53,263 bases of DNA from Bacteroidota bacterium. GTDB lineage: Bacteria; Bacteroidota; Bacteroidia; NS11-12g; UBA955. The notes beneath the pieces were generated by a model, which made no database searches, had not been told where the DNA came from, and was given only the letters and a program-made list of their open reading frames with translations. The stretch covers positions 1-53,263 of the forward strand of contig JBKDBI010000464.1 of NCBI GenBank assembly GCA_046314695.1. The letters run 5' to 3'. The translations under genes and the position numbers were made by a program. This document shows, piece after piece, positions 1 to 48,686 of the stretch (position 1 is the first letter of the stretch; every line of letters starts with the position of its first letter).

Positions 1-456
1 CAGTTGGGGTTTGTGCTGGGTGTGGACGATGTGTTCTGTGAGCGGTGCCACGAGTTGGGACCGGGCACCCAGCAGGCTCTTGAGGTGAGGACCGGGCTGG
101 TCCAGTTGACAGTGGACCAGATGAAGCCGAGGTGGCCGAACATCGGGCACCCCGGCCTACGCGATCTGGTGGGCAAGGCCATGAGCGACGGAGAGCGGGC
201 GGCTGCCGCGAGCAAGCCCACGCCGACACGGGCGGGTCCAAAGAAGATGAAGTGGCTGGGCCTGACGTGGGAGGGTGTGCCCTATCCGTGGCTGCTGGGC
301 GTGGCAGTCGTCAAGGGCGTGCGGACGCTGTGGGCGGAGGTCAGGCGTGTGGGCTGGCCGTGGTCCAAGCGTGCGACCGGCTGCGGCTGCCTGTCCGCCC
401 CCAAGCGAGCACTCGCTGCCGTCACCAACACCTTGAGTGGGGGGAACAGCAAGTGA
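1..456 (+). CDS. 3' part of a virion-module ORF, probably the continuation of the ORF that leaves the window at 53015..53263
   Basis: Frame 1 is open from base 1 to TGA 454-456. The ORF from ATG 53015 ends the window after exactly 83 codons, so the two join in frame if the sequence is circular. No family recognised. Confidence 0.45.
   Translation, partial: QLGFVLGVDDVFCERCHELGPGTQQALEVRTGLVQLTVDQMKPRWPNIGHPGLRDLVGKAMSDGERAAAASKPTPTRAGPKKMKWLGLTWEGVPYPWLLGVAVVKGVRTLWAEVRRVGWPWSKRATGCGCLSAPKRALAAVTNTLSGGNSK
429..444 (-). repeat. Signature motif copy (CCCCCCACTCAAGGTG read on minus strand)
   Basis: The plus strand reads CACCTTGAGTGGGGGG. The copy is antisense to local genes, lies in the last codons of the wrap-around ORF (read as NTLSGG) and sits 20 nt before the glycosyltransferase ATG. 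Confidence 0.95.
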
Positions 457-464
457 TCCAGAAG

Positions 465-1184
465 ATGCTGCATCATGTGTGGCTTGGTCCCAACGAGATT
501 CCTGAGAGGGATCTGGTGTGGATTGGAGCGGCCCAGCGGGCTGTCCGTCGCAACAGCGAGGATTGGCAGTGCGTCTTGTGGGTCAACTCGAAGACCAACG
601 CCAGTCGCTATTCTGATCTGGGGGCGTCGCTGGTGCCCGAGCTGTTCAACCAGCAGATGTTCAACGAGATCCCCACCTTGTTCAAGGGCAACACCGTCTA
701 TGTGGTGCAGTCGGACATCGTGAGGATGGAGATGATTTGTCGGTACGGGGGTGTGTACATAGACACGGATGTTGAGCTGTTCAAGCCGTTGGGACCGCTG
801 CTGGATGGCGTGGAGCTGGCGTACGCCAACGAGTGGGGTGAGAGTCCCGGCAACTACTGCTTTGCAGCGAAGGCTAACCATCCGGCCATGTGGACGTGCC
901 TGCGTGAATTGGAGGGGCACTTCAATCAGATGAAGCAGGGGGGTCGAGTTCAGAAGGATGTGCTGGGGCTGGCGGGGCCGATCTACTTGAGCAGGCAACT
1001 GCTGAAGTATCAGCCGGTGATCTGGCCTCATCGGGTGTTCAACCCGCTTTGCTACATGCAGAACCCGGACAAGGTGGTCAAGTGGCCTGAGTGCTCGTAC
1101 GGCAACCATCGCTATGATGGGAAGTGGTACGAGCGGCAGAAGACTGATCCCGCTGAGTTTCCACGCATGGAGTATCTGCCGTGA
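465..1184 (+). CDS. Glycosyltransferase, GT32-like (DXD sugar-binding region)
   Basis: ATG 465 is in frame in track ORF 132..1184. MLHHVWLGPNEIP and SDIVRMEMICRYGGVYIDTDVE fit the hhQiW.G..iP ... sD..R...L..GG.Y.D.D pattern of DXD glycosyltransferases. Confidence 0.65.
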   Translation: MLHHVWLGPNEIPERDLVWIGAAQRAVRRNSEDWQCVLWVNSKTNASRYSDLGASLVPELFNQQMFNEIPTLFKGNTVYVVQSDIVRMEMICRYGGVYIDTDVELFKPLGPLLDGVELAYANEWGESPGNYCFAAKANHPAMWTCLRELEGHFNQMKQGGRVQKDVLGLAGPIYLSRQLLKYQPVIWPHRVFNPLCYMQNPDKVVKWPECSYGNHRYDGKWYERQKTDPAEFPRMEYLP

Positions 1185-3805
1185 GGACTCGCACGCTGGG
1201 CAACAGGGCTTGGGACTACTCGCTGACGGATGCGAACGCTGATCTGTCGTCGAGCAGGACGGGGTGCAAGCCCGGCTTCGCGTCGAGGTTGGTGGGTGTC
1301 GATCCGATCGAGATGCGACCTTTCCACGGCTTCAAGTATTTTGCGGCATTGGATTCGGGCAGCGGGACGCTGACGTTTGTGCGATCGGTCACAATTCGCA
1401 CGGGCGCTCAGGATCTGACGGGTGGCTTTGTCTATCGCAAGGGCACGTCGATCTACTTCAAGCGGCTTGTGCCTACGGTCGCGGTTGGTGCCGTCGAGCT
1501 GAAGGCGGGAGTGAGTGCGACTGCTCAGATGGACGTGGCGGTCTACGGGCGGCTCGTCTACGTGTTCGTGCAGGGTGAGGAGCCGTTCCTTTTCTACTTC
1601 AATGGAACTACGCCGGTCGTGGTGTACGACACGGGTCCGGGGGCTAACCCCACACTGAACAGCCCGGATCAGACGGTGACGCTGGGTACGTTGACGGGTG
1701 AGGGTGGGCAGATCGTCCTGACGAATCAACGGCCCGATTCGTTTGTGAGCCCGCTGGGGCTGGGACAGAATCAGGCGGCGAGCGTGGTAACGGTGCGGTC
1801 GCTGTCGCCGGGCAACTACACCTTTGCGTACCAGCTCTACGATTCGAGGAGTGGGCGGTGGGGTCAGTTGTCGAAGGTGGCGGTCGCGGATTCGACGGCG
1901 TTCGGTCGCTATCAGACGACGGGCACGGTGGTCGGCTCGGGTGCTCCGGGGTCGGGCGGCGTGAATGCGATTACGAGCGTGACAGGGGCTGCTCAAGAGT
2001 CGCGGTTCGCTGCCATCGAGATCGCGTATGACACGGCCAAGTGGGACACGGCCTACGTCTATCGGTCGGTTCGCACGGAGAGCGCGGGTGGTACGACTGC
2101 TGCTGCTCTGCTGCTGCTCGATCGGATCATCACGCTGTCAGCGTACCGGGCGTATGACTGGCCCACGTCGTCGGGCATCTCGGGCTTCGGCTCGGGCTCA
2201 GGTACGACGTACGGGTCAGGCTCGGGCCGTGTGAATGAGGGCGGGCTTGATCGTGCAATCTACTGGTACGAGCTGGATGACAAGCAGCTTGTCGTCAAGG
2301 GGGACGTGTACGCCGATTCGCCCGATTTTCAGGCGGAGATGCCGCGAGGCGGATGTGCGTGCTTTTATGAGGGGTCGATGTTGGTCGGTGCGTTGAGGCA
2401 GGGCACCACGTCGTTTGACAGCAATTTGGGCGAGTTGCGGTGGTCGTCGCTCGTGCGACAAGGCCCCGAGTTGTTCAGCTCGCGGGCGAGCTACACGCCG
2501 TCGATTCCGAGTGCTGAGGTACTGCGGATTGTGCAGGTGGGGCCGAATGCGGTGGGGTTCGGACGTGACCGGCTGTTCATGGTGCGGAAGGAATCGACGT
2601 TCATCAAGGTGCAGGAGATGCACGAGGGCATCGGCATCATCAACCCCAATGCGGTTGCAGTCTTTGCTAACTCCGCGTACTTCGTCAGCGACAAGGGGCT
2701 GAAGTTTATCGACTCGACCGGGCAGCTCGATGACGTGCGTGGTGTGGACGATCCCATCTATGTGAAGTGGCGAAACACCCGAGCCAACGTGGTCTGCGGC
2801 TTCGATCCGACGCTGGGCGTGGTCGTTGTCCACAACCCTGACTACAAGACGGGGCACACGCTGCTGTTGTGGACAGTTGGCAAAATCACCGAACTTGAGG
2901 ACACCTCGGTCTTCAAGTTCATCGAGCAGGGGGCGTTTCCGGTTGACTGGACTGAGGCATCTCCTACGGGCTCGCTGACCCGTCGCTTGTTTTTTGTGAC
3001 TGCTTCAGGCAACATCTATCTGGTGGACTCGCAGCGGTCCCGCTACACGGAAGGCACGACGAAATACACGGCGTCGGTTCTCATGCACCCGCCTGACTAC
3101 TCACGGCTCGTGTGGCAGGCCGACGAAGACTTGTCCGCTGGCGACACTGTGGTTACGGTGATGGGGCAGTCGGGCAACCCACCGACTGGTTGGGATTTCT
3201 CCAACCCACGTTACGCCGACTGCTATCTCTATGTGTTGAGCGATCCGACCAATCCTGCCAACGTAGGCAAGCGTGCTCGCATCACTGGAGCTACGAGTGG
3301 GCTTGGTGCGCTTGAAGTGGATACGGCGGCAGGGCTTACCCTGAGTGAGGGGGCGTGGGTCGGCATCAGTCCGGTGAAGGTGGTGTGGAATGGCCCGCCG
3401 CTCAGCGAGCAGATGGACAACGGAATGGAGGGGCAAGCCAACTTCGTGTCGCAGAAGCGGGTGAGCGGCATCAAAGTCGGGTTCGACACGCTGTTTGGCC
3501 CGTCGATCGGAGAGCCGTACGCTACCTACATGGGCGTGGTTTATCGCGGGGATCAGGAGGTTCCTGATGCGACGGGCCAGCCCATCTTGCGGTCGGGCAG
3601 CTATGCACCGGGAATTGCGGAGGCTGACGCGGGGTACACTGCGGTTCCCATTCAGACGCAGGCTACGTCGGTGAGGGCGAGGCAGGGCGTGCAGGGCAGC
3701 AATCTGGTGCCGGGCTTTGAGGTGTACTGTCCGAAGACGGACTATACTCTGCTGGGCGTTCGAGTCGAAGGCGAGATGGTTGCCGACGATCGCAGCGCGG
3801 TGTGA
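1181..3805 (+). CDS. Large virion/tail structural protein (874 aa), family not recognised
   Basis: Long ORF with a GTGA overlap onto the preceding stop. It lies in the virion arm. It contains a degenerate motif copy at 3337-3353 read as TLSEG. Confidence 0.6.
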   Translation: MRTRTLGNRAWDYSLTDANADLSSSRTGCKPGFASRLVGVDPIEMRPFHGFKYFAALDSGSGTLTFVRSVTIRTGAQDLTGGFVYRKGTSIYFKRLVPTVAVGAVELKAGVSATAQMDVAVYGRLVYVFVQGEEPFLFYFNGTTPVVVYDTGPGANPTLNSPDQTVTLGTLTGEGGQIVLTNQRPDSFVSPLGLGQNQAASVVTVRSLSPGNYTFAYQLYDSRSGRWGQLSKVAVADSTAFGRYQTTGTVVGSGAPGSGGVNAITSVTGAAQESRFAAIEIAYDTAKWDTAYVYRSVRTESAGGTTAAALLLLDRIITLSAYRAYDWPTSSGISGFGSGSGTTYGSGSGRVNEGGLDRAIYWYELDDKQLVVKGDVYADSPDFQAEMPRGGCACFYEGSMLVGALRQGTTSFDSNLGELRWSSLVRQGPELFSSRASYTPSIPSAEVLRIVQVGPNAVGFGRDRLFMVRKESTFIKVQEMHEGIGIINPNAVAVFANSAYFVSDKGLKFIDSTGQLDDVRGVDDPIYVKWRNTRANVVCGFDPTLGVVVVHNPDYKTGHTLLLWTVGKITELEDTSVFKFIEQGAFPVDWTEASPTGSLTRRLFFVTASGNIYLVDSQRSRYTEGTTKYTASVLMHPPDYSRLVWQADEDLSAGDTVVTVMGQSGNPPTGWDFSNPRYADCYLYVLSDPTNPANVGKRARITGATSGLGALEVDTAAGLTLSEGAWVGISPVKVVWNGPPLSEQMDNGMEGQANFVSQKRVSGIKVGFDTLFGPSIGEPYATYMGVVYRGDQEVPDATGQPILRSGSYAPGIAEADAGYTAVPIQTQATSVRARQGVQGSNLVPGFEVYCPKTDYTLLGVRVEGEMVADDRSAV

Positions 3806-3824
3806 CCGCATGTAGGGAGCCGCC

Positions 3825-6403: not shown

Positions 6404-6406
6404 CCA

Positions 6407-8292: not shown

Positions 8293-8313
8293 CTTCTGCA
8301 TTGGAGCATTCAC

Positions 8314-8793: not shown

Positions 8794-8831
8794 TCCCCAC
8801 CACAACGCGATCTACATGATGGCTTGAGGGT

Positions 8832-8889: not shown

Positions 8890-8907
8890 ACTTGACTAGG
8901 ATGAGCC

Positions 8908-11900
8908 ATGAGCCAAGCCCCCACTCAAGGTGCGTTGCCCGGCCAAGCTGGGTTTGACGTGTCGCCCTTCGGTTACGAGTCGATCTACTCGGCACCCCGT
9001 AACATCGTCTCCTCGCTGCTCGAAGGTGAAGCCACCTTGAGTGGGGGGATGGCTGCGATGTTCGCACAGGATCGGCTCACTCCGGCTGAGCGTAGCAGCA
9101 CGATCAGGCAGCGGCTTGAGGCGACGACGGGCGATTCATCGGTGAGCAAGGCGTTGTGGGGTGTGGTCACGAACCCGTGGGTGTGGCTGTTTGCGGTTAC
9201 GTCGCCTATTGGAGGCCGAGCGGCCAGTGAGATGTTTAGGTCGGCTCCCAAGTATGTGAGTTGGGTGTCCGATCGGTTCTCCGTGTTCAAGATGCTGGGT
9301 CTCACCAACATCCGATCGCAGCTCGGTGAGCGTGTCAACCAGATGGCCCATCGGGTGGGGGCGGTTCACGACGAGGTACTCAACCGGCCAGAGGTCAAGC
9401 GGGTGTTCGACGCTGAGACTGCCCTCATCAAGCAGCACGGCCTCGACCCCAAGATTGGGCTCAACTGGCGGGAGTACACGGATGGCGATCTGCGGAAGAC
9501 TGTGGCCCGCGACATCAGCACCCTGCTCCACGTACACAGGGACGGGATGCTCACGAATGTCTCGCCCACTCGACTCATGATCGACAAGCAGACCGGCAAG
9601 CTGGCCCTTGAGACGAGGAAGGAAGTACCTGCGCTGCTGACCAACAAGGAGAACTTTGGACGGTTGGTTCAGCAGTATGGGGTTGACGAGTACATCAAGG
9701 CGGTCGATGGGCTGTTCGACATGACGGCCAAACGAATGACCGATGATCCGAAGTGGTTGTTCCGCATGGCACGCGGCACGGGCAGTGCGAACGATGCGTT
9801 CAAGGACATCCATCAGCTTGTGAAGCCGAAGGACAAACTGACGAAGGCTCTGTTTGCTCGTATCAAGCAGATGGACCCTAACAACCCCGACGACGTGCGG
9901 GAGTTGAGCGAGACGTTCGTGCGTCGGTTCATCGAAGATAAGCACTACATGCCACGCAACACCCGTGAGTTGTACAGGAACGGGGAGGTACTGGATGGTA
10001 GAGCACTCAGTCAGGAGAAGAATGTCAGGCCGTCGGGACTGGTGTTTGAGCGGTCGAGGAGCAAGGTTCCCTACCACCCCGAAGACTTGGCGTACGCAGC
10101 ACGATTGATTGATGGGGTTGATCTGCCACAGCTCGCATCGCAGGCTGGCGACAAACCTGCGCGGTTGGTGCGGATGTATAAGGAGGGCAACCGGCAGCTC
10201 AAGGGGTTGCAGGGTGAGCCGGGTGCCGTCTACAGGATCGACTCGGCTCGCTCCATTGATCGCTACGTCAAGGACTACGCGCACAATGAGGCGATGTACA
10301 TGACAGATGTGGGTGATCTGGTGCGGGCTGCTGACCAGCAGTTGTGGGGCAACCTCAAGAAGAGCGGTGCGGTTGTTGAGACGAAGGAGACGTTCGGCGA
10401 CGGTGTGTCGTATGCGTTGCCGCTTGATGAGGTGGAGAAGCAGCTCAAGGGCGGAGTGAGTATCGCTGACTTGCTGGGTCAGGAGTACGTGCTGGCCAAG
10501 GGTCAGTACAACAGAGATCTCATCTCGCATGTGGTGGTGCCACACCTGATGGGTGTGCAGGAATCGCACAGCACGGCGGCTCGCGGAGCGGTGCTCTTCA
10601 CGAAGCAGCTGGCTCGGAACTTTAGCGAGGGCGTGATTGGTGATGGGATCAGGAAGACGGGCGAGTGGGGTCGTCGCTTTGTGGAGAAGATGGGGCAGTA
10701 CGGCAACTCGACAGATGCGGCGGGCGTGGCTCGCACGGCCTCCGAACTTCAGTACCGCGTGAGTCAGACGCTCTACTCGTCGCACCTCGGTATCCCTAAT
10801 GTGGGTTCAGCCCTCATCAACCTGACGCAGCCGATGCTGTTTGCGGGCTCGTGGGTCGGCTACGGTGACGTGCTGGCTGGGTACGGCGCGGCGTTCAAGC
10901 GGCTGGGTGGCTACTTCTCTGACCGCATGAAGATGGGGGCAAAGGTCATCAGCGAGACTGAGCGTAACCAGCTGATCGAGAAGCACTTTGGCGATCTGAC
11001 GAAGTTCAGGGTGGGCAACGAGACCCGCGATCTGCTGGAGATCGGAGAGTCAGGGCTTCAGTTGTACGAGGGCGTGGGCATGGGCCGCCGTGCGTCTGCG
11101 GCTGCTGAGACGACGTGGGACAAGTTCTTTCACGGGACCATGAGCCTGTTCCAGAAGGCGGAGTGGGTCAACCGCGTGACCACGGCAGAAGCAGCCTTGC
11201 GTCTGGCTAAGAGGCAGGGACTTGGTGCGGCGGACACTGCGCTGTTTGCGGACAGGGTGGTGAAGACCACCCAGTTTGGTGGGCACTGGATGGACCAGCC
11301 GCTGGCGTTCTTGGGTGGTAGCCAGAAGGTTGAGGGTGTGGCACGCATCACGTCGTTGGCACAGAATCCACTGCTGCGTCAGTTGCTGTCGTTCCCCACT
11401 CGGACGCTGGTGACGGCGTTTGAGACGGTGCCTCGGCTGGGAGGGCGTGAGGGACTGACGGGGTTCACGGGCTTCCTCAACGACATGGGCCGAGCAATGG
11501 CCATGAGTGCGTTGATGTGGGAGGTGGGTAAGGAGACGCTGGGCATTGATCTGGCGAGGGCTGGCATGTTCGCCGCCACCACCGACGCGATGCCCTTCAT
11601 GTCACAGGGCAGAGTGGACACGCGAGATTCGGTGCTGCCTTTGCCTCCGATCATCGACATTCCGGTGGCGGGCATCAAAAAGCTGTATGAGGATGGGACG
11701 GGAGCGGCGATCGCGGAGACGTTGCCAAGGCTGGTGCCGGGTGGTATCGGCTTCCAACGCATGTTCAACGTTGCACCGGAATTGCCGGGGCCGCTTCAGG
11801 CGGTGCTGGGCCAGAAGCAATTTGCCGACTGGAACAACCGTGCGGCAGATGGGTCGGTGCCCATCTACCGAGAAGATGGAACGCTGCTCCGGTTTGAGGA

Positions 11901-13441: not shown

Positions 13442-13457
13442 CACCTTGAGTGGGGGG
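13442..13457 (-). repeat. Signature motif copy (minus strand)
   Basis: CCCCCCACTCAAGGTG-cttt-ATG(13437). Confidence 0.95.
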
Positions 13458-13979: not shown

Positions 13980-13995
13980 CACCTTGAGTGGGGGG
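13980..13995 (-). repeat. Signature motif copy (minus strand)
   Basis: Intergenic, 20 nt after the stop of 14016..14606. In the transcription direction it is followed by an 8-bp hairpin GGGAGGCT/AGCCTCCC (13951-13978). Confidence 0.95.
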
Positions 13996-15594: not shown

Positions 15595-16146
15595 TCAGTG
15601 AGTGATGTTGTTGATGCCCGCGATCCCTGCGGTCGCGTAGACCGGCACCTGATCGGGCTGACCGTCGAGACCGGCGAAGAGGTTGTCGGGCAACGTAGGC
15701 TGAACTCCCTCGCTCGGAGCCCGCACGTCGAGAGGCAGGGCAGTCTGCGGCTCGGGCCACTGCTGCTGAACCGGGTCTTCCTGCTGCATGATCGGTGAGC
15801 GGGGAGTGGGAACAGGCTGAGGCTGGGGGACGAAGGCGGTCTCGGCGACGAAGGCGCGGCGGGTGGTGATACCGAGGGCAGCGATCCACCGCTTCCACAT
15901 CGTGGGCTTCACCCGGATGGAGAAGCCCCGATTGGCGAGGGCCTTGTTGAACCGGGTCAACCCCCCACTCAAGGTGTTGTCTCCGCTGTTGATAGCAGCC
16001 AGCACATCGGCGCGAAGGTGGTCGATGATGCCGAAGCGGGGGTGCTCGATGTAGGGGAGCAGAGGATGGCTGGCGGGGAGCAGCCCGGTCAGCTTGCTGG
16101 GGCGAGAGCGGTTTGACTTGCGAGCACGAATCTTCTTGCGAGGCAT
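15595..16146 (-). CDS. Hypothetical basic protein (183 aa), possible DNA-binding
   Basis: ATG 16146 (MPRKKIRARKSNR) with a GGAGAA SD. It contains an antisense motif copy read as NTLSGG. Confidence 0.5.
   Translation of the reverse strand: MPRKKIRARKSNRSRPSKLTGLLPASHPLLPYIEHPRFGIIDHLRADVLAAINSGDNTLSGGLTRFNKALANRGFSIRVKPTMWKRWIAALGITTRRAFVAETAFVPQPQPVPTPRSPIMQQEDPVQQQWPEPQTALPLDVRAPSEGVQPTLPDNLFAGLDGQPDQVPVYATAGIAGINNITH
15961..15976 (+). repeat. Signature motif copy (plus strand)
   Basis: Perfect CCCCCCACTCAAGGTG, antisense inside gene 15595..16146. It is convergent with copy 16168, with 191 nt between them. Confidence 0.95.
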
Positions 16147-16167: not shown

Positions 16168-16183
16168 CACCTTGAGTGGGGGG
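16168..16183 (-). repeat. Signature motif copy (minus strand)
   Basis: Perfect copy 21 nt upstream of ATG 16146. Confidence 0.95.
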
Positions 16184-17976: not shown

Positions 17977-17981
17977 GTGAA

Positions 17982-17997
17982 CTCCTTGAGTGGGGGG
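17982..17997 (-). repeat. Signature motif copy (CCCCCCACTCAAGGAG)
   Basis: CCCCCCACTCAAGGAG-ttcac-ATG(17976). Confidence 0.95.
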
Positions 17998-22108: not shown

Positions 22109-22124
22109 CCCCCCACTCAAGGTC
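22109..22124 (+). repeat. Signature motif copy (CCCCCCACTCAAGGTC, plus strand)
   Basis: Antisense to local genes. Its complement supplies the TGA stop of gene 22117..22503. Confidence 0.95.
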
Positions 22125-23317: not shown

Positions 23318-23826
23318 ACAAACTCCTTGAGTGGGGGGTACTGGTGCAGGAGAAGGAGGCGGACAACGAGTTCGCCTGCGGCCTTGCGTCCTGCGTCGGA
23401 CTTGGTGTCGATGAAGAAGAGGGAGATGCGGCGAGTTGAGAGTTCATGGATTAGGTGGTCGAAGGCGGGGCCGGGGTTGTGGGTCCAAGGAGCGGCTGGC
23501 TTGAAGAGGATGGAAGAGTTGCATTCGAGGAGGAGGATGGGGACGGGAAAGGCGGAGAGACGGTCGAAAGCGGCGAGGGTTCGGGCTCGGTCGTCAGTGA
23601 GGAGGTTCTTGCAGAGTTCGGAGGGGGAGCCTTTTCGCTCGATGATGCAGCGGGGAGCGGCACAGGAGAGCGAGTAATCCCCGGTCGGAAGCGTGCGAAC
23701 GAGTTTGTGGATGCGGATGACCCGACCTTCGGACGAGCGTGAGCCGGAGATTGTGTGGATCGTGGAGGGGAGGGGGAGCGGGTGCTGCTCACGCGAGTCG
23801 ATGAGGATGGTGTGCTCGGCTGGCAT
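23161..23826 (-). CDS. ERCC4 / Mus81-XPF-type endonuclease
   Basis: ILIDSREQHP ... LPTGDYSL ... IIERKGSPSELCKNL ... ILLLE matches the ERCC4 signature (D.RE ... GDY ... ERK..DL). Its 3' end overlaps the next gene by 157 nt. Confidence 0.6.
   Translation of the reverse strand: MPAEHTILIDSREQHPLPLPSTIHTISGSRSSEGRVIRIHKLVRTLPTGDYSLSCAAPRCIIERKGSPSELCKNLLTDDRARTLAAFDRLSAFPVPILLLECNSSILFKPAAPWTHNPGPAFDHLIHELSTRRISLFFIDTKSDAGRKAAGELVVRLLLLHQYPPLKEFVCPSDVLVTSPLSTSPTPQPPNSSENSDPGLSTSPASSVLPTSSPASPPQMR
23323..23338 (-). repeat. Signature motif copy (CCCCCCACTCAAGGAG)
   Basis: CCCCCCACTCAAGGAG-tttgt-ATG(23317). It lies inside the 3' tail of the ERCC4 ORF, where it is read as YPPLKE. Confidence 0.95.
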
Positions 23827-24380: not shown

Positions 24381-26385
24381 CTTGATAGAGGGCGAGGTAG
24401 GCCGAGAGGGCTGAGGGGTGGCAGTCGGTGTAGCAAGCGTCGTGGACATCGAGGAAGGGAGCGATGAGTCCGTGAGAGAGGAGGGAGCGGGCTTCTTTGG
24501 ATGAGAGTGCTGCATGTTCGATGGCTCGCTGGACGGTGGCAGCTGTCGTTTGGATGGGGCAGTTTAGGACTTCGGAGGTGATGTAGGCTTGGTCTTCGTT
24601 AGTGGGATCGAAGTCGGTGAAGGAGCGGCCTGCGCCGGTGAAGGGCAGGGTGATGTGGCCAAGACGGCGGGTGTCGGCGATGAGGCGGCACTGCCAATCG
24701 TAGAGAACGGGGCGGAGGGTGGGGCGGGAGCGGACAATGGAGAGGAAGAAGTCGAAGGGGAAGAGACGGCCTGTGTCCTTGAGCATGGAGGCTTGCATCC
24801 GCTTGGCGAACGCCCAGTAGAGGTCGGAGAAGTTCAGCTTCTTGGCCCACTGGCGAGGGTCCTTGCGCATGTCGCCGCACTTGAAGTCGGGTGAGGACAG
24901 GATGGAAGGGCCGAAGACGAAGACCGCGCGTTTGGTGTGGAGGTCCGGCTTGGGAAGCTGGTACTCGGTGATGAGGGTGGGCTCACCAGAGAGCACGCCG
25001 GGCACGCGAAGCTCAATCTGGGAGAGGTCGTGCGAGACGATGGAGCCGCCACGGTAGCGGGAGCGGAGGCACTTCTTGACGACGGGCGGGAAGGTCTGGG
25101 CGGCGGGCTTCTTGAAGGAGAGCCGGACTTGGGACTGACCGCCGCTGTCACCTGCTGTCGAGTCTTTGCCCTCCTGCGAAGGGGTGACGAAGATGGAGGG
25201 ATAGGCGAGCAGAACGTCCGGGTCATAGCCCCCAGCAAACACACCTTGAGTGGGGGGTTTGATAGCGACGGAAGTGGTGTCGCGCGAGCCGTCGGAGCGT
25301 GGGTTGCGTGAGCCGTGGAGGAGGGGGTAGAGGTAGGTGGAGATGACTTTGTTGAGGCGGGAGCAGGAGGTCCACTCGGTGAAAGCGGGACGGAGTGGCG
25401 AAGTGGGAGAGAGGAGGGAGAGGAGGAGGGTGCGGTTGTTGTCGTCGGTGGAGACTTTGCCGGTGCCAGTGCGGTTGATGAGACGGTGAGAGAGGATGGT
25501 GGGGAGGTTGAGAGAGGAAAGGATGTCAGGAGAGGAGTCGATCTCGTCGATGGCTCGGTCGATGAAGGATTGGCGGGAAGCGGTAGAGCCTTCGCCATTG
25601 AGGGTTAGGCCGTGGGTGAGGGTGGCGGCAGCGGCTGCGTCGGCCCGAGTGAGGTGGTCGGAGAGGGTGGAGGAGAGGGCGGAGGCAGAGAGGGGTATGC
25701 CGGACTCGATGAAGGTGAGGGCGATGTCGAGGGTGGCGGAGTAGAAGGAGGCGGCAGATGCTGAGAGTTTGGGGGAAGAGGGGCCATGCTTGGAGATGAT
25801 GGAACGGGTGAGGGCGCGAGCGAGGAGGACAACGTTGTGGGAGTCTTGGGCGCAGTAGTGTTGAGCTTCAGGCGAGTGAGGAGAAGGGAAGCGGGAGCCG
25901 GAACGAAGAGTGGAGTCGGAGTAGGAATAGATGTTGAAGACAGGGCCGAGGTCCTTGAGAGAGCGTTCGGGGCGAGCGTCGTTGTCGAGGTAGTTGAGGA
26001 TGGTGGTGTCGATGATGGGAATGCCGAGGGGCAGGCAGGAGCGGAGTCCGAAGTAGCGGAGGAAGGAGCGGTCGTAGTTGATGTTGTGACCGAGGAGGTG
26101 GGTGGCACGGGAGAGCCACTCGCGGAGCCAGCGAACGTGGGTGGGATTGTGGAGAAGGAAGAGGCGGGTGTCGATGGGCTCGATGCTGGCGAGCCACTCG
26201 TAGCCGGGGGCTGGATCAGCGCGAACGAGGGTGACGGAGATGAGGGGGACGGCACGGGCGAGGGTGCTGATGCCGGATTGGCCGTGGATGCGGGCGGGGT
26301 GGAAGTGGTCGGAATGGGGGAGGGGGCGGTTGAAAGCGTCTCGCTCAAAGGCTGAGCTGGTTTCGCAGTCGATGGAGAGGACCAT
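24274..26385 (-). CDS. Family A DNA polymerase with 3'-5' exonuclease domain (T7-like size, 703 aa)
   Basis: MVLSIDCETS (ExoI), GHNINYDRSFL (ExoII), YCAQDSHN (ExoIII), HDLSQIELRV (motif A), RQWAKKLNFSDLYW (motif B-like), FLDVHDACY (motif C). Confidence 0.85.
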   Translation of the reverse strand: MVLSIDCETSSAFERDAFNRPLPHSDHFHPARIHGQSGISTLARAVPLISVTLVRADPAPGYEWLASIEPIDTRLFLLHNPTHVRWLREWLSRATHLLGHNINYDRSFLRYFGLRSCLPLGIPIIDTTILNYLDNDARPERSLKDLGPVFNIYSYSDSTLRSGSRFPSPHSPEAQHYCAQDSHNVVLLARALTRSIISKHGPSSPKLSASAASFYSATLDIALTFIESGIPLSASALSSTLSDHLTRADAAAAATLTHGLTLNGEGSTASRQSFIDRAIDEIDSSPDILSSLNLPTILSHRLINRTGTGKVSTDDNNRTLLLSLLSPTSPLRPAFTEWTSCSRLNKVISTYLYPLLHGSRNPRSDGSRDTTSVAIKPPTQGVFAGGYDPDVLLAYPSIFVTPSQEGKDSTAGDSGGQSQVRLSFKKPAAQTFPPVVKKCLRSRYRGGSIVSHDLSQIELRVPGVLSGEPTLITEYQLPKPDLHTKRAVFVFGPSILSSPDFKCGDMRKDPRQWAKKLNFSDLYWAFAKRMQASMLKDTGRLFPFDFFLSIVRSRPTLRPVLYDWQCRLIADTRRLGHITLPFTGAGRSFTDFDPTNEDQAYITSEVLNCPIQTTAATVQRAIEHAALSSKEARSLLSHGLIAPFLDVHDACYTDCHPSALSAYLALYQDAVERIATTGYWSHICEHYGHYVPLVAECTIHAST
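25242..25257 (-). repeat. Signature motif copy (minus strand) inside the polymerase gene
   Basis: Perfect copy, co-oriented with the gene, read as KPPTQGV between the exonuclease and polymerase parts. Confidence 0.95.
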
Positions 26386-30175: not shown

Positions 30176-30190
30176 CGCCTTGAGTGGGGG
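30176..30190 (-). repeat. Signature motif copy (CCCCCACTCAAGGCG)
   Basis: CCCCCACTCAAGGCG-attcac-ATG(30169), directly after the stop of 30191..30430. Confidence 0.9.
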
Positions 30191-30430
30191 TTAGCCGACG
30201 GAGTTGATGCGGAAGGAACCGTGTATGACGTAGGGGGTTTGCCGCATGATGTATTCGCTGAGGTCGGGGGAGACGCATCGCAGATCTCCAGCGAGGTCAA
30301 TGAGTGCAACGCCGGACACCATGACGACGTAGGGGCTGCCTTCGACGGTGACGACGGTGTTGGGCGGGAGTTCGCTGACCTTGCGCTTGTGGGGAGAGGT
30401 GGGCCAATGGTCGGTACAGACGATGTGCAT
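30191..30430 (-). CDS. Hypothetical protein (79 aa)
   Basis: ATG 30430 lies 8 nt after variant motif 30439. Confidence 0.5.
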   Translation of the reverse strand: MHIVCTDHWPTSPHKRKVSELPPNTVVTVEGSPYVVMVSGVALIDLAGDLRCVSPDLSEYIMRQTPYVIHGSFRINSVG

Positions 30431-30437: not shown

Positions 30438-30671
30438 TTACCTTGAGTGAGGGGTGGATGCGAGGAGGGCACGAGCACGAACATAGAGGCAAGTGGGCTC
30501 GTGCTCTACGGTTATACCTGTGATATAGCCAAAATGCACCTTGGCCCGGCAGAAGAAGCACTCGTGACCTTCTACGTTCCCGTAGCGAGTAACTGGTACC
30601 ATCCAGTCATCCATCTCGGCGAGTTCACGAAAGAGGGAGAAGGGCGTATCGGGAGCAGGCTTGTCGCTCAT
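30438..30671 (-). CDS. Hypothetical protein (77 aa) with a CFFC motif
   Basis: ATG 30671 (MSDKPAPD) lies 7 nt after motif 30679. Its stop TAA lies inside variant motif 30439. Confidence 0.5.
   Translation of the reverse strand: MSDKPAPDTPFSLFRELAEMDDWMVPVTRYGNVEGHECFFCRAKVHFGYITGITVEHEPTCLYVRARALLASTPHSR
30439..30454 (-). repeat. Signature motif variant (CCCCTCACTCAAGGTA)
   Basis: Two substitutions relative to the consensus. AAGGTAA contains the upstream stop codon, and ATG 30430 follows 8 nt later. Confidence 0.8.
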
Positions 30672-42512: not shown

Positions 42513-42556
42513 CGTGCTATCCTTCTCTGGACCCTCTGGCCCTTTGGAGTTCCCGC

Positions 42557-43012
42557 ATGAAACCCACGATCGGCACACTGTCCGACCGCTCCTTCAACAA
42601 CTACCTCTCAATCCTCGAAGGCTCGTCCAAACTCTCCCCCGCCACCCAGCTCTCCATCCTGCACTCCATGCGGCACAACTTCCGTGCCCAAGACTTCGCA
42701 GCCATCACCCAAGACATCGCCCAGAAGGCCAAAGCCACCGGGAGCAACCGGAGCAGCCGCGACATCCTCATGACCCCCACTCAAGGTGTGGGCCGAGGCC
42801 GCTCTTCATCTTCAGTTGTGCCTGTTGCGACCGCCGCAAGGAGAGCTTCAACTCAATCCGTTATGCCAGTTCAAAAGCCTGTGCGCGGTGGTCGCCAACT
42901 TGATCCCACCATCCTATCATCTCGTACCGCCGCCATCAACCCCCTGTCCGATTTCCCCCTCACGCTCGGCTCAGCCAATGCCCCCCTCGTCTTCACGCCC
43001 CCCGTCCTCTGA
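42557..43012 (+). CDS. First gene of the rightward arm, hypothetical (151 aa)
   Basis: GGAG lies 8 nt before ATG 42557 (MKPTIGTLSDRSF). It is divergent from the helicase start, only 44 bp away. Confidence 0.45.
   Translation: MKPTIGTLSDRSFNNYLSILEGSSKLSPATQLSILHSMRHNFRAQDFAAITQDIAQKAKATGSNRSSRDILMTPTQGVGRGRSSSSVVPVATAARRASTQSVMPVQKPVRGGRQLDPTILSSRTAAINPLSDFPLTLGSANAPLVFTPPVL
42774..42788 (+). repeat. Signature motif copy (plus strand)
   Basis: CCCCCACTCAAGGTG, read as TPTQGV in 42557..43012. Confidence 0.95.
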
Positions 43013-43027
43013 CCCTCCCCCTCCCAA

Positions 43028-43044
43028 CGCCTTGAGTGGGGGGG
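43028..43044 (-). repeat. Signature motif copy (CCCCCCCACTCAAGGCG, minus strand)
   Basis: Lies 15 nt after the TGA of 42557..43012. It is convergent with 42774, with 239 nt between them. Confidence 0.9.
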
Positions 43045-43052
43045 ATGACTCG

Positions 43053-44134: not shown

Positions 44135-44678
44135 CTGCTTTACGTGGTTGTTGCGTGGTTTCAAGAGCCTTGGTCTCATGAATCCGTGCAACCGCTCCTC
44201 TCACAACGACGTGTACTGGGGCGGTCTCTTCATGAAGGTCGTCGATCTGTGGACCGCTCAGGCATTGCCGCTTGAGTGGCAGATCCCCATCAACGAAGCC
44301 GTCTGTGAGTCGCAGATCGACGAAGCCTGCACGTTCCTTGGCAAGTGCCACGTTATGGTGGCGATGGCCGCGTACGCCATCCACGTCAATCCCAACCTTC
44401 TTGCCACGTCGGAGTCCGTGTCATGCCGCCCGCAGTCGTCCAAGTCTCACGGCTCAACAATCCCTACTACCCACTCCCCGCTGACTACCCCGAGCTTGAC
44501 GACGACGGACAGCGGCTCGCCCGAGTCAACGCCTGCCGTCAGTGGCTCGTCCACGCAGCCGACCCTACCGTCCAGTCTGACCTCTACGCAGCCTCAGTCA
44601 ACTTCTTCAACCGCTACTACCTCTACCCCGACCCCGCCGACGACTTCGATCCGTCGTTCTACCAAAACGGCCTCGTAA
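43998..44678 (+). CDS. Hypothetical protein directly upstream of the large terminase (small-terminase position)
   Basis: GGAG lies 9 nt before ATG 43998 (MSISNATLNANA). The frame stays open 255 nt into the terminase gene as a Ser/Thr/Pro tail. The call rests on position only. Confidence 0.35.
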   Translation: MSISNATLNANATSFQPHSGPPTWLPHQQRLFSDIRKVILQNEPRDCFTWLLRGFKSLGLMNPCNRSSHNDVYWGGLFMKVVDLWTAQALPLEWQIPINEAVCESQIDEACTFLGKCHVMVAMAAYAIHVNPNLLATSESVSCRPQSSKSHGSTIPTTHSPLTTPSLTTTDSGSPESTPAVSGSSTQPTLPSSLTSTQPQSTSSTATTSTPTPPTTSIRRSTKTAS

Positions 44679-46444: not shown

Positions 46445-46661
46445 CCAACCGACTATCCACCCCTCGCACGTCGTCATCCCCCTCTCTCTCTTCCGACTGC
46501 TTGCCGAAGCCTACTACCGAGGGCAGCCCCCCACTCAAGGTGCAGGGACAGGAGCGAGGAAGCCGGAAGATGCGGACTGGCTGCGAGCATATAGTGAGCA
46601 ACGGAGCCAGAACCCGATGCTGTGGCAGGATGCGGATGAAGGCGGAGCGGATCAAGAGTGA
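46374..46661 (+). CDS. Possible small ORF between terminase and portal (95 aa)
   Basis: The only start (ATG 46374) lies 71 nt inside terL. It contains a motif copy read as PPTQG. Confidence 0.25.
   Translation: MLFSQTPPNATSPTPPALETLSSNQPTIHPSHVVIPLSLFRLLAEAYYRGQPPTQGAGTGARKPEDADWLRAYSEQRSQNPMLWQDADEGGADQE
46527..46542 (+). repeat. Signature motif copy (plus strand)
   Basis: Perfect copy 140 nt upstream of the portal ATG. Confidence 0.95.
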
Positions 46662-46682
46662 TCGGATTAGCTGGGAGCGAGT

Positions 46683-48686
46683 ATGCACGTTGCGTTGCCT
46701 GACAACCCGGAAGCCCTCGCAGCCCTCATCGAGGAGCATGTGCAGCAGCAGCTCACGGCGTTCTCGTACCGTCGTCTCATCTGGAATCTGGTTTACCACT
46801 ACCTGAACGGGTGCCGCCGCTTCGACGTGTTCGATCCCAAGTCGAACACGATCAGGCCCTACGAGCTGGACGAGCAGGGCCGGTTGGAGTTGCAGGGACC
46901 GGAAGTCGTCCGCAAGATCGACCAAGTGACCGGACTGCTTGCCTCTCTTGACTTCAGGCCGAGGGTGGGTCGCACAGGTTCGTCGCTGCGGTCGATGCGT
47001 GAACGAGCCGGCGCACAGGTGATCGTGGACAACATCATCAACGACAACACCATCAGGCCGTTCAAGGTGATGGCCGCGCACGTGCTCGCCTCGCTGGGAT
47101 GTGTGGGCATTCAGGGTCACGTCAAGGACTTGCCGGTCGTGGGGCTCACGGGTCATCTTGAGGTGATTCACCCCCGCGAGTTGCTGCCGTTCCCTGCCGC
47201 CACGACCGACTACACCAAGCAGCAGTCGTTCATCCGCATCCAAGCGTTTCCCCTGAAGATGCTCGAAGAGAAGCTCGACCGAAAGCTGACGGAGAAGGAG
47301 CTTCAGGGCTGCAAGAAGTACAGAAGGCGAATCGGCGACACGCTCGCACCCGATCACCACGAAGCCAACTCCTATCCGCACTCGCCCAGCCGCTCAAGCG
47401 GAAGCACCTTGAGTGGGGGGTCGGGCAAGGCGCGAGATGAGATGTTTGAGGATGTGATTCTTACGCGGCAGTTGTGGAACATCGGGCACGGCGGGTTGGT
47501 CCATGACTTTGTAGTCAGCAGTGGGCGATCCATTCTGCTGCATCAGAAGGCAGAGGGCGTGCCGCTCTATCCCAGCATCGGCATCGCACGGTTCATCGAG
47601 AACGGGTCGTTCTACGGTATCGGTGCGTTTGACATCGTGTTTCACTACGCGAGGTCGCTGGAGAAGATGGTCAAGCTGATGTTGCAGAACATCAGCGACA
47701 TGGACTCGTTTGGGTGCGTGGTGTTGCCGCAGACGATGGACGCGAATGCCACGCTCAAGCAGGTGGGTCCGGGGCTCAAGGCGTTGTTCCATTCGCCCGA
47801 TCCCTCCCTTTACGAGTCGAACTTCAGACCGTTCCCCATCACGCCGTTCAACACGGGAGACGCGGCAGGTCGAGGTGCGGCGTTTATTCAGGGGCTCATG
47901 CAGACGGTCGATCCGTATCCTGACTTGGCCAGAGAGAAGGGTCGAGTGGAGAGTGCAGCTGGGTTGCGGATGCTGGACGACAAGTTGAAGTCGGGCACTG
48001 TGACGGGCACGACCAATCTGACGGCGGCTTGTGCGGTCGTGTATCGCTCGATGCTTATTGATGCTGCGAGCATGTTGTTGACTAGTCCGCGACCGATCCC
48101 GGTGTCGAGGTTGACGCTTGATCTGGCGGGTGTGAGCATTGACACGGACACCATGCAGGTGCAGTTCAATGACAACCCGCTGCCCAACGTCAATCTGTTG
48201 ACGGTGGACCTGACTGAGGGTTCTCCCCAGAATCCGCTGGTGGCCAAGATGGAGGCGGTTGAGCTATTGAAGCTCGGGGTGAACACGCCTGAGTCGTTCA
48301 AGCGGTACTGCATCAAGCAGGGCATCGACTTGGCTGCGGACATCGACGGTGAAAAGGCGGCACAGGAGACAGCGGTGATCCGCATCCTGACCATTTTCAA
48401 CGATGGCAAGTCGCCGGGCGAGGTGGTGCTGACGCAGTACAACACGCGGCCCGATGTGGAATTGGCGTTGCTCAGTGACTTCTTGCCGAGTCCCGTCGTG
48501 CAGTTTGCGTCACCCGATGTGCAGAACGCGCTGGGTGATTATCGAGATGCGCTGATTCAGTTCTCGGGTCGAACGCTGCCTGAAGCGGTGCCTAGCCCGG
48601 TGGACATGGCGACGCTCAATCAGGGTCCGATGAATCCGCTACAATCGGCTGGCGGGGCCGTGGGTGCTCCGCCGATGCAGATGTGA
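46683..48686 (+). CDS. Portal protein (by position and size, 667 aa)
   Basis: GGGAG lies 6 nt before ATG 46683. It sits between terL and the scaffold/capsid genes. No motif verified by eye. Confidence 0.55.
   Translation: MHVALPDNPEALAALIEEHVQQQLTAFSYRRLIWNLVYHYLNGCRRFDVFDPKSNTIRPYELDEQGRLELQGPEVVRKIDQVTGLLASLDFRPRVGRTGSSLRSMRERAGAQVIVDNIINDNTIRPFKVMAAHVLASLGCVGIQGHVKDLPVVGLTGHLEVIHPRELLPFPAATTDYTKQQSFIRIQAFPLKMLEEKLDRKLTEKELQGCKKYRRRIGDTLAPDHHEANSYPHSPSRSSGSTLSGGSGKARDEMFEDVILTRQLWNIGHGGLVHDFVVSSGRSILLHQKAEGVPLYPSIGIARFIENGSFYGIGAFDIVFHYARSLEKMVKLMLQNISDMDSFGCVVLPQTMDANATLKQVGPGLKALFHSPDPSLYESNFRPFPITPFNTGDAAGRGAAFIQGLMQTVDPYPDLAREKGRVESAAGLRMLDDKLKSGTVTGTTNLTAACAVVYRSMLIDAASMLLTSPRPIPVSRLTLDLAGVSIDTDTMQVQFNDNPLPNVNLLTVDLTEGSPQNPLVAKMEAVELLKLGVNTPESFKRYCIKQGIDLAADIDGEKAAQETAVIRILTIFNDGKSPGEVVLTQYNTRPDVELALLSDFLPSPVVQFASPDVQNALGDYRDALIQFSGRTLPEAVPSPVDMATLNQGPMNPLQSAGGAVGAPPMQM
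47405..47420 (-). repeat. Signature motif copy (minus strand) inside the portal gene
   Basis: Perfect copy, antisense to the gene, read as STLSGGS within the Ser/Gly-rich loop HSPSRSSGSTLSGGSGKARDE. Confidence 0.95.

Follow-up and report, generated by a model that had tools for sequence, protein, structure and literature searches.

A C-rich word repeated along an uncultured freshwater phage genome, and in its relatives, as a putative family-specific DNA recognition word

Repeated asymmetric words in described systems

Among the systems closest to the repeat reported here are the DUS/USS uptake-sequence dialects of the Neisseriaceae and Pasteurellaceae. DUS are short asymmetric words found about once per kb on both strands, common in genes at permissive positions and enriched between genes, with inverted pairs that often form terminator hairpins and with clade-specific dialects that surround a conserved core and follow phylogeny (PMC3630211). 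The phage word is alike in spacing, gene and intergene placement, inverted-pair hairpins and clade dialects, and six of its features (ancestry, codon selection, ORF copies, persistence, pairs and density) match reported DUS dialects (PMC3630211). In contrast, DUS belong to bacterial chromosomes and are read by the competence pilin ComP in transformation, whereas the word described here belongs to a phage family with no uptake process. Unlike DUS, its local dialect is 16-17 nt in length and doubles as a ribosome-binding site.

Two phage systems had been proposed as analogies in a sequence-only reading of this DNA. The start-associated sequences (SAS) of cluster K mycobacteriophages are phage-specific asymmetric repeats with a Shine-Dalgarno core, located a few nt before the ATG of non-structural genes, sometimes over the upstream stop codon, and have no known function. 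Virtually all SAS copies lie 3-7 bp before starts, in one orientation and only in the non-structural arm (PMC3203893). In the present phage, no more than 9-10 of the 24 copies adjoin a start; 7 are contained entirely in ORFs, 7 run antisense and the structural arm has 8 (7 of these in the window). The SAS sequence GGGATAGGAGCCC is also unrelated, so this analogy does not hold. The stoperators of cluster A (L5-like) mycobacteriophages number approximately 25-35 per genome, distributed throughout it as asymmetric sites that mostly share one orientation with respect to transcription, and their variants co-vary with phage lineage as those of the phage word do. However, their reader is the immunity repressor of a temperate phage; this comparison needs a cognate repressor, and no HTH, repressor or integrase domain was detected in any ORF scanned.

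PeSLs of T4-type phages are also short repeated cassettes, which flank small accessory genes and recombine with one another to give gene indels, of which one example is seen here (discussed below). They consist of a sigma-70 promoter plus a stem-loop, neither of which is present in the 16-mer alone, and are restricted to hyperplastic regions and absent from ORFs. Chi sites resemble the phage word in being G-rich, asymmetric, frequent in genes and on the G-rich strand, but are 5-8 nt in length, host-specific and read by RecBCD/AddAB.

Copies in the window and their placement

The window (the whole 53,263-nt stretch analysed) falls approximately 850 bp short of an uncultured freshwater phage genome of approximately 54.1 kb. 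At up to two mismatches, CCCCCCACTCAAGGWG has 22 matches in the window, compared to 0.10 expected from shuffles (largest shuffle value 2), while the 11-nt core CCCACTCAAGG at up to one mismatch gives 24. The total is 24 copies once two degenerate ones are added to the 22. The conserved block is approximately 17 nt (A-C6-ACTCAAGG-T-G), and no second conserved block is found within ±30 nt of the copies, whose quality is bimodal: near-perfect or absent. The ~850 bp beyond the window contain a 25th copy, sense and abutting the ATG of a 176-aa gene (L023, 19594). The copies in the window are as follows (L020, L021 and L233 are relatives).

429..444, minus strand: full copy, antisense relative to the rightward genes; in the final codons of the 176-aa gene (TLSGGNSK-stop); right partner of the sense copy in the ~850 bp outside the window
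8917..8932, plus strand: sense, G at position 1; codons 4-9 of a 1150-aa virion-module gene (APTQGA); left partner of 9033
9033..9048, minus strand: full, antisense; codons 42-47 of the 1150-aa gene (TLSGG); partner 116 bp away
13442..13457, minus strand: full, sense, intergenic; AAGG 6 nt before ATG 13437 (187-aa gene)
13980..13995, minus strand: full, sense, intergenic; ~20 nt past gene 14016-14606; not used as a ribosome-binding site, given a hairpin downstream and 184 nt to the next start
15961..15976, plus strand: full, antisense; within a 183-aa gene (TLSGG); partner 16168 at 207 bp
16168..16183, minus strand: full, sense, intergenic; 21 nt before ATG 16146, with a separate GGAG closer to the start
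17982..17997, minus strand: sense, intergenic, ends AAGGAG; 5 nt before ATG 17976; kept in L233 (18347)
22109..22124, plus strand: antisense; its complement CTTGAG holds the TGA stop of gene 22117-22446; partner 23323; kept in L233 (14239, minus strand)
23323..23338, minus strand: sense, ends AAGGAG; 5 nt before ATG 23317 (conserved 89-aa ORF), where the upstream ERCC4-like protein ceases to be conserved
25242..25257, minus strand: full, sense; inside PolA (IKPPTQGV), within a loop insertion specific to the clade; L233 has the orthologous copy (11150)
30176..30191, minus strand: fills the spacer from the TAA of a 79-aa gene to ATG 30169 (55-aa gene)
30439..30454, minus strand: 2 mismatches; before ATG 30430; holds the stop of a 76-aa gene; one edge of a one-gene indel relative to L233
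30679..30694, minus strand: full; before ATG 30671; encodes the C-terminal PPPTQGASQ-stop of a 222-aa gene; other edge of that indel
36180..36194, minus strand: degenerate (CCCCCACTC-AGGAG, 1-nt deletion); 5 nt before ATG 36171 (690-aa gene)
36253..36268, minus strand: directly 3' of the TGA of an 84-aa gene; terminator-like hairpin 36231-36202 next
37012..37027, minus strand: ACCCCC...AAGGAA; between the TGA of an 87-aa gene and ATG 37006
37297..37312, minus strand: degenerate (ACCCCCACCCAAGGCA, 4 mismatches); between the TGA of a 74-aa gene and ATG 37290
41023..41086, minus strand: inverted copies 41071 (minus) and 41023 (plus) in a hairpin of -54 kcal/mol followed by UUUUU, a predicted intrinsic terminator; directly after the SF3-helicase gene
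42773..42788, plus strand: sense; within a 151-aa gene (TPTQGV); left partner of 43028; kept in L020 (293)
43028..43043, minus strand: antisense, intergenic, between the 151-aa and 274-aa genes; kept in L020 (529) and L021 (2346)
46527..46542, plus strand: full, sense; TerL-portal spacer, 140 nt before the portal ATG; kept in L020 and L021
47405..47420, minus strand: full, antisense; inside the portal gene (TLSGG, ~codon 241), at the same portal codon in relatives 74-77% identical at the nucleotide level

The 24 copies listed by the sequence-only reading are real: all 22 search matches fall within 1 nt of its coordinates, and the two degenerate copies, 36180 and 37297, are recognizable despite their deletion and mismatches. 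The motif-free stretches that it described (445-8916, 17998-22108 and 47421 to the end) are also present, as is a phage-specific frequency far beyond chance. Its weak relic at 3337 is dropped, as three mismatches is chance level (shuffles give approximately 1.6 sites at up to three). With respect to a generic host repeat, no sign of one was seen, the genome and metagenome matches listed being almost all single chance matches.

Intergenic copies make up 14 of the 24, compared to 11.9% intergenic DNA (P=7e-8), and 17 are in sense orientation. The statement that the motif mostly abuts start codons was too strong: nine copies do so, or ten if 16168 is included. For those nine, the geometry was accurately described, with AAGG 6-10 nt before the ATGs at 13437, 17976, 23317, 30169, 30430, 30671, 36171, 37006 and 37290. 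The 3' end does double as a Shine-Dalgarno sequence: AAGG(T/A)G corresponds to the usual AAGGAG/GGAG of this phage and is the ribosome-binding site of approximately ten genes. Several copies overlap an upstream TGA or TAA. The predominance of sense, intergenic and start-abutting copies and the frequent stop overlap also suit a gene-expression cassette, and to that extent count against a DNA word.

Such an intercistronic translation cassette would be SAS-like but act on RNA, as a standard ribosome-binding or re-initiation site. A factor from the phage or the host may bind its unit (stop codon, CCCCCCACUC, AAGGNG, 5-9 nt and AUG), and downstream antisense copies would be its cis anti-RBS partners. 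SAS provide a precedent, all 11 unpaired copies are sense, and every antisense copy follows a sense copy located upstream in the same reading direction. We nevertheless consider this explanation unlikely. Complete 16-mers occur within the genes for PolA, the portal and the 1150-aa protein, and in L233 also within those for JAB and ThiF; no start codon lies close to three of the sense intergenic copies (13980, 36253 and 41071); and pair partners lack compensatory changes (23323 ends AG, its partner 22109 TC). In L021, the left partner is across a divergent promoter region, so it and its mate are probably on separate transcripts. Furthermore, the words of relatives are mostly in ORFs, in any frame and on both strands.

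The seven ORF-internal copies in the window always use one reading frame: sense copies encode PTQG and antisense copies TLSGG. ORF copies in the clade of the window keep the whole 16-mer, with (P/T)PTQG in 10 of 10 sense copies and TLSGG in 6 of 7 antisense copies, and the PolA copies are five-codon loop indels. Because a Shine-Dalgarno sequence is useless inside an ORF, this retention was counted in favour of a DNA word.

A promoter for phage-specific transcription, either a T7/T3-type single block or one used by host RNAP with a phage factor, is the least probable of the readings considered. The motif is indeed a single conserved block with no -35 partner, sense copies precede the portal operon, the 1150-aa gene and many small genes, and CCCCCACTCAAGG is identical at 11 of 13 positions to the T3 promoter CCCTCACTAAAGG. 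However, none of the ORFs shows an RNA polymerase domain or motif, there are seven antisense copies (one pair stands face to face just 48 bp apart), the ORF-internal copies follow the frame rule, the word in relatives is mostly antisense in structural genes, and leaders would measure only ~10 nt.

A sense copy precedes each of the seven antisense copies, 48-1214 bp upstream (P=0.0014), and all seven plus-strand copies have a minus-strand copy within 1.3 kb to the right (P=0.0014). Inverted pairs form hairpins in three clades. This pairing and the bimodal copy quality would suit a cassette that moves or propagates itself without a dedicated reader. Recombination or template switching would spread it, as in PeSLs, its precedent, or in quasi-palindrome mutagenesis, and it would be kept for supplying a Shine-Dalgarno sequence or hairpin. 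Relative to L233, a one-gene indel (30458-30678 plus one copy) has its edges exactly at two copies, and in PolA a clean 15-nt indel carries the motif. Such spread is still very unlikely as the full explanation: of the many indel breakpoints, a single one coincides with the motif, neither a transposase nor a recombinase was detected, and such spread would leave unexplained the same ORF-internal 9-10-mer, against codon expectation, at ~40% TerL identity and very different GC content.

Dialects of the word in related phages

In relatives with 74-87% nucleotide identity, the 16-mer is found at orthologous places, including antisense copies within ORFs. More distant relatives (~40% TerL identity, GC 0.39-0.64) have shorter dialects, CCCCCCACT(C) or, in one nested clade, CCCCACCAGCC, which recur about every 1.2-2 kb, for the most part inside genes. 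Word density is alike across dialects at approximately one per 1.2-2.1 kb, and in the ORFs of 11 relatives the words are 10-30 times commoner than in synonymous-codon shuffles. From GC 0.39 to 0.63, most TerL clades show enrichment of CCCCCACT-type words: at GC 0.43, for example, there are 12-15 copies per 21 kb, or 35-60 times the composition expectation. Two clades show no word enrichment, which speaks against a family-wide word, as does a strand bias within GC-skew expectation. This bias is no larger in relatives than skew alone predicts, so polarity cannot serve as separate evidence. In high-GC, skewed genomes the hexamer CCCCAC by itself is hardly enriched, and the idea of a shared core thus rests on the longer words.

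Dialects that track phage clades, as stoperators track repressors, are consistent with operators at which a phage regulator binds an asymmetric DNA site to block or time transcription genome-wide. The 16-17 bp site, its ~25 copies mostly in short spacers and the shared orientation of 17 of the 24 relative to transcription also agree. In addition to the missing repressor, gene content looks lytic, most copies in relatives are ORF-internal, and sense and antisense copies are equal in number in the rightward arm, making such operators distinctly unlikely.

A host Chi or other host-derived polar word (GAGTGGGG-type), accumulated to tame RecBCD/AddAB, is highly improbable. In its favour, the density is Chi-like, the G-rich form is on the G-rich strand in ~70% of cases, and the G-rich strand of one dialect, GGCTGGTGGGG, contains the E. 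coli Chi octamer GCTGGTGG. Skew accounts for this strand bias, however, and one CCCCCCACT word spans GC 0.39-0.63 and phages from both marine and freshwater samples, a breadth that a host-specific Chi would lack. At 16-17 nt, the stretch conserved in this phage greatly exceeds known Chi in length, and the 14-mer matches in bacterial genomes, among those listed, are all single. A length of 16 nt is unusual for uptake-like words as well, a point against the DNA word itself.

A candidate recognition word and its role

A C-rich word shorter than the 16-mer is kept genome-wide by the phage family, even inside genes, and the 16-mer is its extended local dialect. From its distribution across clades, the word appears to be ancestral and independent of base composition. 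Retention about once per 1-2 kb even inside genes suggests a mark recognized on DNA rather than a signal for translation. The first 9-10 nt of the 16-mer constitute a word shared across the family, which in relatives is selected at the DNA level within genes, so translation initiation is likely not its primary role. We tentatively favour a family-specific DNA recognition word read by a conserved, putatively phage-encoded protein (probability approximately 0.4).

The only family-wide DNA enzymes recognized are PolA, a D5-like SF3 helicase, a PD-(D/E)XK exonuclease and a Sak4-like ATPase. None of these is known to require such a site, which counts against the recognition word, as does the failure to find a reader protein.

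Such a word would be recognized in duplex or single-stranded DNA during a DNA transaction that spans the genome. Because one copy would be needed every 1-2 kb, copies would settle at least-cost sites. In the short spacers of the leftward arm, the motif would be oriented so that AAGG(T/A)G serves as the Shine-Dalgarno sequence of the next gene; inverted pairs would build hairpins, including a terminator; and inside ORFs the motif would be tolerated only in the PTQG or TLSGG frames, in variable loops. The likeliest role for the phage family would be a self-mark directing a nuclease or an enzyme of replication, recombination or packaging, much as Chi steers RecBCD and uptake sequences steer ComP.

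Gene content of the phage

The window has a 61% GC content and the gene layout of a nearly complete phage genome; comparison with the near-identical relative L023 places about 850 bp of a genome of approximately 54.1 kb outside it. Its main features are as follows.

Features of the window
42.56 kb to the window end, then 1 to 12.65 kb, plus strand: rightward (structural) genes, including a portal-sized gene, virion genes, a glycosyltransferase, an 874-aa fibre-like protein and a 1150-aa protein
44423-46444, rightward: large terminase (TerL; phrog_38)
42.44 kb down to 12.87 kb, minus strand: leftward genes, including a D5-like SF3 helicase, small early genes, JAB and ThiF proteins, PolA, an ERCC4-like protein, a PD-(D/E)XK exonuclease and a Sak4-like ATPase
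41109-42443, minus strand: helicase gene, called 'DNA primase' by PHROGs
40415-41108: 700-bp spacer after the helicase gene
40548-40520, minus strand: sigma-70-like promoter TTGACC-17-TATTGT
38034-38513, minus strand: early 159-aa protein
36270-36524, minus strand: 84-aa protein
31579-34127, minus strand: adjoining JAB and ThiF proteins
30441-30671, minus strand: 76-aa gene
23161-23826, minus strand: ERCC4-like protein
23048-23317, minus strand: 89-aa ORF
17998-18035, minus strand: tRNA T-arm-like stretch GGTTCGACTCCGG

Neither a nucleotide match to the window nor a protein match to its TerL was found among 50,697 phage records. An Acetobacteraceae MAG contains a binned protein identical to TerL, and this protein recurs in approximately 100 blocks of the contig collection, on contigs of up to 56 kb; judged from accession numbers alone, the samples of origin appear to be freshwater ones. 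Most ORFs lack a Pfam or PHROG match, so the recognised protein repertoire is thin. A 690-aa early protein has just two homologues and no relative in the PDB, and a 717-aa protein was rejected as a conserved enzyme, as it cannot be aligned with its positional counterparts in relatives. The PHROGs 'DNA primase' aligns solely with the helicase half of a SaPI-type primase-helicase (PDB 7OLA residues 433-757), and a primase domain was not recognised in any part of the genome.

The JAB deubiquitinase-like protein (PF14464, E = 1e-7) adjoins a ThiF/E1-like protein (PF00899, E = 1e-20), and the nearby 84-aa protein has faint beta-grasp matches (Ufm1, 2Fe-2S, SLBB; E approximately 0.03-0.08); together the three may constitute a phage-borne ubiquitin-like conjugation module. 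This possible module is kept in L233, a relative with 79% PolA identity, and was not seen in the distant relatives examined. The ERCC4-like protein has a GDY...ERK motif and matches PF02732 at E = 0.0014, under the curated cut-off. Its conservation stops at a copy of the repeated motif described below, and its final 55 codons, which are unconserved, overlap the conserved 89-aa ORF in a different frame. The early 159-aa protein weakly matches the anti-sigma-factor zf-HC2 zinc finger (E = 0.0045, also under the curated cut-off). Between 37.5 and 40.4 kb, the sets of small early genes vary among the otherwise near-identical genomes of the window, L023, L024 and L025 (for example, 123+109+95+122 aa versus 159+91+136 aa); no motif copy lies in this mosaic region.

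In the 700-bp spacer, GGGGAGGG/CCCTCCCC repeats occur five or six times, in direct and inverted orientation, alongside the AT-rich run cttatatatatttttcaggtgtcaaaaaaa and, ahead of the early genes, the sigma-70-like promoter; the spacer looks like an origin combined with an early promoter. A number of partial contigs from this phage terminate in the 38.5-41 kb interval. The tRNA T-arm-like stretch lies in a 328-nt spacer just upstream of the motif copy at 17982. No tRNA was identified there by ARAGORN or by Rfam (E<=1), and no integrase is present.

Motif copies in the window and its close relatives

At two or fewer mismatches, the 16-mer CCCCCCACTCAAGGTG matches the window 22 times, versus 0.10 expected. 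Two degenerate copies (36180, with a 1-nt deletion, and 37297) raise the total to 24, in agreement with the sequence-only reading, which had listed about this many copies as being beyond chance; the approximately 850 bp absent from the window contain a 25th. The conserved block spans about 16-17 nt, the 30 nt on either side of it contain no further conserved block, and site quality is bimodal, being either near-perfect or at background. Fourteen of the 24 copies are intergenic, although intergenic DNA makes up 11.9% of the window (P = 7e-8).

The earlier claim that copies mostly abut start codons applies to 9-10 of the 24: AAGG is located 6-10 nt upstream of an ATG in nine copies, and a tenth copy sits 21 nt upstream of one, while seven copies lie wholly inside ORFs and three are intergenic with no close start. 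These three (13980, 36253 and 41071, all in the sense orientation) are each followed by a hairpin. Several start-abutting copies overlap the upstream TGA or TAA, and the motif therefore fills the whole spacer. The proposal that the 3' end doubles as a Shine-Dalgarno sequence is borne out, as AAGG(T/A)G occupies the ribosome-binding site (RBS) position in nine cases. Genes without the motif likewise rely on AAGGAG or GGAG within C-rich surroundings, so the 3'-terminal third of the motif amounts to the standard Shine-Dalgarno sequence of this phage.

For the start-associated sequences (SAS) of cluster K mycobacteriophages, virtually all copies lie 3-7 bp upstream of starts, in one orientation and in the non-structural half only (PMC3203893). 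The analogy with SAS drawn from the sequence alone is sound with respect to a repeat that contains a Shine-Dalgarno core and precedes starts, but fails for orientation and location: copies in this phage are also found antisense (seven), in the structural arm (eight, one of them in the missing stretch) and within ORFs. Because start-adjacent, sense copies are so frequent in the window clade, a role of the motif in this clade that is dual, or confined to expression, is a serious rival to a role at the DNA level. If the motif were only an RBS cassette, it would represent a second, independent SAS-like system, outside the actinophages.

Seventeen of the 24 asymmetric sites are sense and seven antisense. 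Every plus-strand copy (7/7) has a minus-strand copy 48-1214 bp after it, and divergent pairs are absent (P = 0.0014 by label permutation). Copies in the rightward arm occur exclusively as four convergent pairs (four sense and four antisense copies). In the leftward arm, three further pairs are accompanied by 11 unpaired copies, each of them sense. The two most closely spaced partners, 41023/41071, form a hairpin of -54 kcal/mol (z = -5.4) with UUUUU behind it, immediately after the helicase gene; we read this hairpin as a predicted intrinsic terminator. Hairpin-forming inverted pairs also occur in the relatives L171 (2577/2597) and L234 (5602/5630). A single motif copy is not palindromic.

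When the window and close relatives are pooled, all ten sense copies inside ORFs are in the frame CCC-ACT-CAA-GGT, reading (P/T)PTQG(V/A), and six of seven antisense copies read TLSGG. The copies in PolA are located in variable loops, and one of them corresponds to a clean indel of 15 nt that distinguishes the window from L233. The full motif is kept at orthologous positions in contigs with 78-85% TerL or 79-84% PolA identity (74-87% nucleotide), including two antisense copies, one near codon 241 of the portal gene and one on the stop codon at 22109. Gain and loss of copies are seen as well: L233 carries additional ones in the JAB gene, the ThiF gene and at PolA residue 56, and it lacks the 76-aa gene and one motif copy (L233 4239-4257), with indel breakpoints that fall within two motif copies.

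Recombination between copies producing gene indels is a property of PeSL, which combine a sigma-70 promoter with a stem-loop (PMC2839356). The 76-aa gene provides one such case here; unlike PeSL, the motif has no promoter hexamer pair in or beside it, and a lone copy forms no stem-loop.

Several other identities were considered and rejected. The motif resembles the T3 promoter at 11 of 13 positions. No ORF has a PF00940 or PHROG RNA polymerase match or a motif-B pattern, seven copies run antisense, and the two members of one pair face each other across 48 bp; a T7/T3-type promoter was thus discarded. A known RNA family or tRNA was rejected from the results of Rfam (no match at the gathering threshold in the whole window; none at E<=1 for 17900-18400) and ARAGORN (no tRNA). 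RNA pairing of sense and antisense partners was dismissed, as no compensatory changes were seen and one partner in the relative L021 is probably outside the transcript. A primase recognition site is disfavoured because the 'primase' gene comprises the helicase part alone, and a helicase site or origin iteron because the ori-like spacer has other repeats (GGGGAGGG) and just one motif hairpin pair. The case against a host repeat comes from a weakly informative search of 185,579 genomes with a 14-mer and of metagenomes with the 16-mer, in which almost all occurrences were single among the matches listed. IMG/VR phages yielded single chance matches to the 16-mer only, and a literature search for the sequence string returned only unrelated primers.

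Word dialects in distant relatives

The distant set comprises 80 TerL-centred and 55 PolA-centred IMG/VR loci, partly redundant, and four long metagenomic contigs (approximately 40% TerL identity, GC 0.37-0.64, up to 60 kb). Counting the 16-mer in related phages, a check suggested in the sequence-only reading, distinguishes these from the close relatives: all distant relatives fetched lack it. Most contain a shorter word in clade-specific dialects, CCCCCCACT(C) or CCCCACCAGCC, to which the 16-mer of the window clade corresponds; two clades have no word enrichment. CCCCCCACT(C) is found in clades of GC 0.39-0.57 and reaches 12-15 copies in the 21.8 kb of L211 (GC 0.43), or 35-45 times expectation. 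CCCCACCAGCC is restricted to one nested high-GC clade, at about 18 copies per 21 kb, and its complement GGCTGGTGGGG is enriched in L201, L216, L218, L226, L227, L234-L236 and most high-GC PolA loci. Density is similar across dialects, and the same 9-10-mer is present in phages spanning GC 0.39-0.63. The window clade branches deepest in the TerL tree, and the first 10 nt of its motif are common to most other clades; the word therefore appears to be ancestral, with the 16-mer looking like a local extension.

By simple ORF calls, most copies in distant relatives lie within ORFs, where they occupy every frame and either strand. Synonymous shuffles that hold protein and codon usage fixed give 0.1-1.5 copies versus 4-10 observed, a 10-30-fold excess. 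Intergenic copies are still 2.5-3-fold enriched, and several form hairpin pairs.

Polarity is not counted as evidence. The G-rich form is on the TerL strand in approximately 70% of cases, a strand bias no larger than GC skew predicts, and genome-wide polarity was rejected on this basis as evidence for a Chi- or KOPS-like signal. Plus-strand (G-C)/(G+C) is +0.3 to +0.58 over the leftward genes (12874-40414), so that their mRNAs are very C-rich and G-poor (down to -0.58); the sign reverses at 40.4-46.5 kb, with plus-strand values of -0.2 to -0.5 over the helicase, 151-aa, 274-aa and TerL genes (40400-46500). The inversion at the helicase gene is seen again in distant relatives. Gene-content association across clades was set aside as a way of finding a protein that reads the word, since enrichment of the hexamer does not give a clean phenotype in high-GC genomes with skew.

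Cluster A stoperators are numerous asymmetric 13-14-bp sites, mainly in one orientation to transcription, that are bound by a cognate immunity repressor (PMC6550527). The stoperator analogy, also proposed earlier, survives with respect to number, asymmetry and dialects. With regard to orientation, the 17 sense sites of 24 in the window sit beside an evenly split rightward arm. The analogy falters in that no HTH, repressor or integrase Pfam match (Pfam-recognisable folds only) was obtained for any ORF scanned, and relatives carry the word mainly inside ORFs.

The phage word reproduces the pattern of DNA uptake sequence (DUS) dialects, in which copies within genes occupy permissive positions, copies between genes are enriched, inverted pairs lie at terminators and core-based dialects track phylogeny (PMC3630211). 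It is likewise over-represented genome-wide on both strands, including within genes beyond codon expectation; its inverted pairs form terminator-type hairpins (window, L171, L234), and its clade-specific dialects have a conserved core and agree with the TerL tree. As the carrier is a phage, uptake machinery is inapplicable, and the resemblance is one of pattern, not membership.

Chi is a 5-8-nt word specific to the host RecBCD or AddAB. The phage word shares its G-richness, and GGCTGGTGGGG contains the E. coli Chi octamer, GCTGGTGG, either as a true host Chi or as a coincidence within the dialect. The length of the window block (16-17 nt) and the persistence of one 9-10-mer across GC 0.39-0.63 are at odds with the length and host specificity of Chi.

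A putative DNA recognition word

Four features are hard to reconcile with translation initiation or promoter activity as the primary role: selection of the whole word inside ORFs, one reading frame per orientation, persistence over GC 0.39-0.63, and clade dialects of like density. Together with the match to the DUS-dialect pattern, they favour the reading of the motif as a DNA recognition word, read by a putative conserved phage protein. Use in ribosome-binding sites, terminators and protein loops would then be secondary accommodations. Conservation of the word over very different GC contents argues for a reader that is phage-encoded rather than host-specific.

More broadly, we suggest tentatively, with a probability of roughly 0.3, that a widespread uncultured family of aquatic phages of approximately 50-58 kb marks its own DNA with a dialect word and a conserved phage-encoded reader, as a viral counterpart of Chi or DUS. 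Such a mark would separate self from host or foreign DNA in replication, recombination, packaging or the breakdown of host DNA, and would be constrained strongly enough to have been incorporated into ribosome-binding sites, terminators and protein loops.

Motifs repeated in phage genomes, SAS and stoperators among them, are usually taken as gene-expression signals, and the comparative data here point elsewhere. A genome-wide word selected even inside genes, with lineage dialects, is seldom documented for viruses, and the fixed-frame PTQG and TLSGG peptides are a clear case of DNA-level constraint shaping protein sequence. If a phage protein does read the word, this family, which has no cultured member by the TerL search, would possess a new self-recognition or DNA-handling mechanism, and the word would also provide a simple sequence marker for placing metagenomic contigs in its clades.
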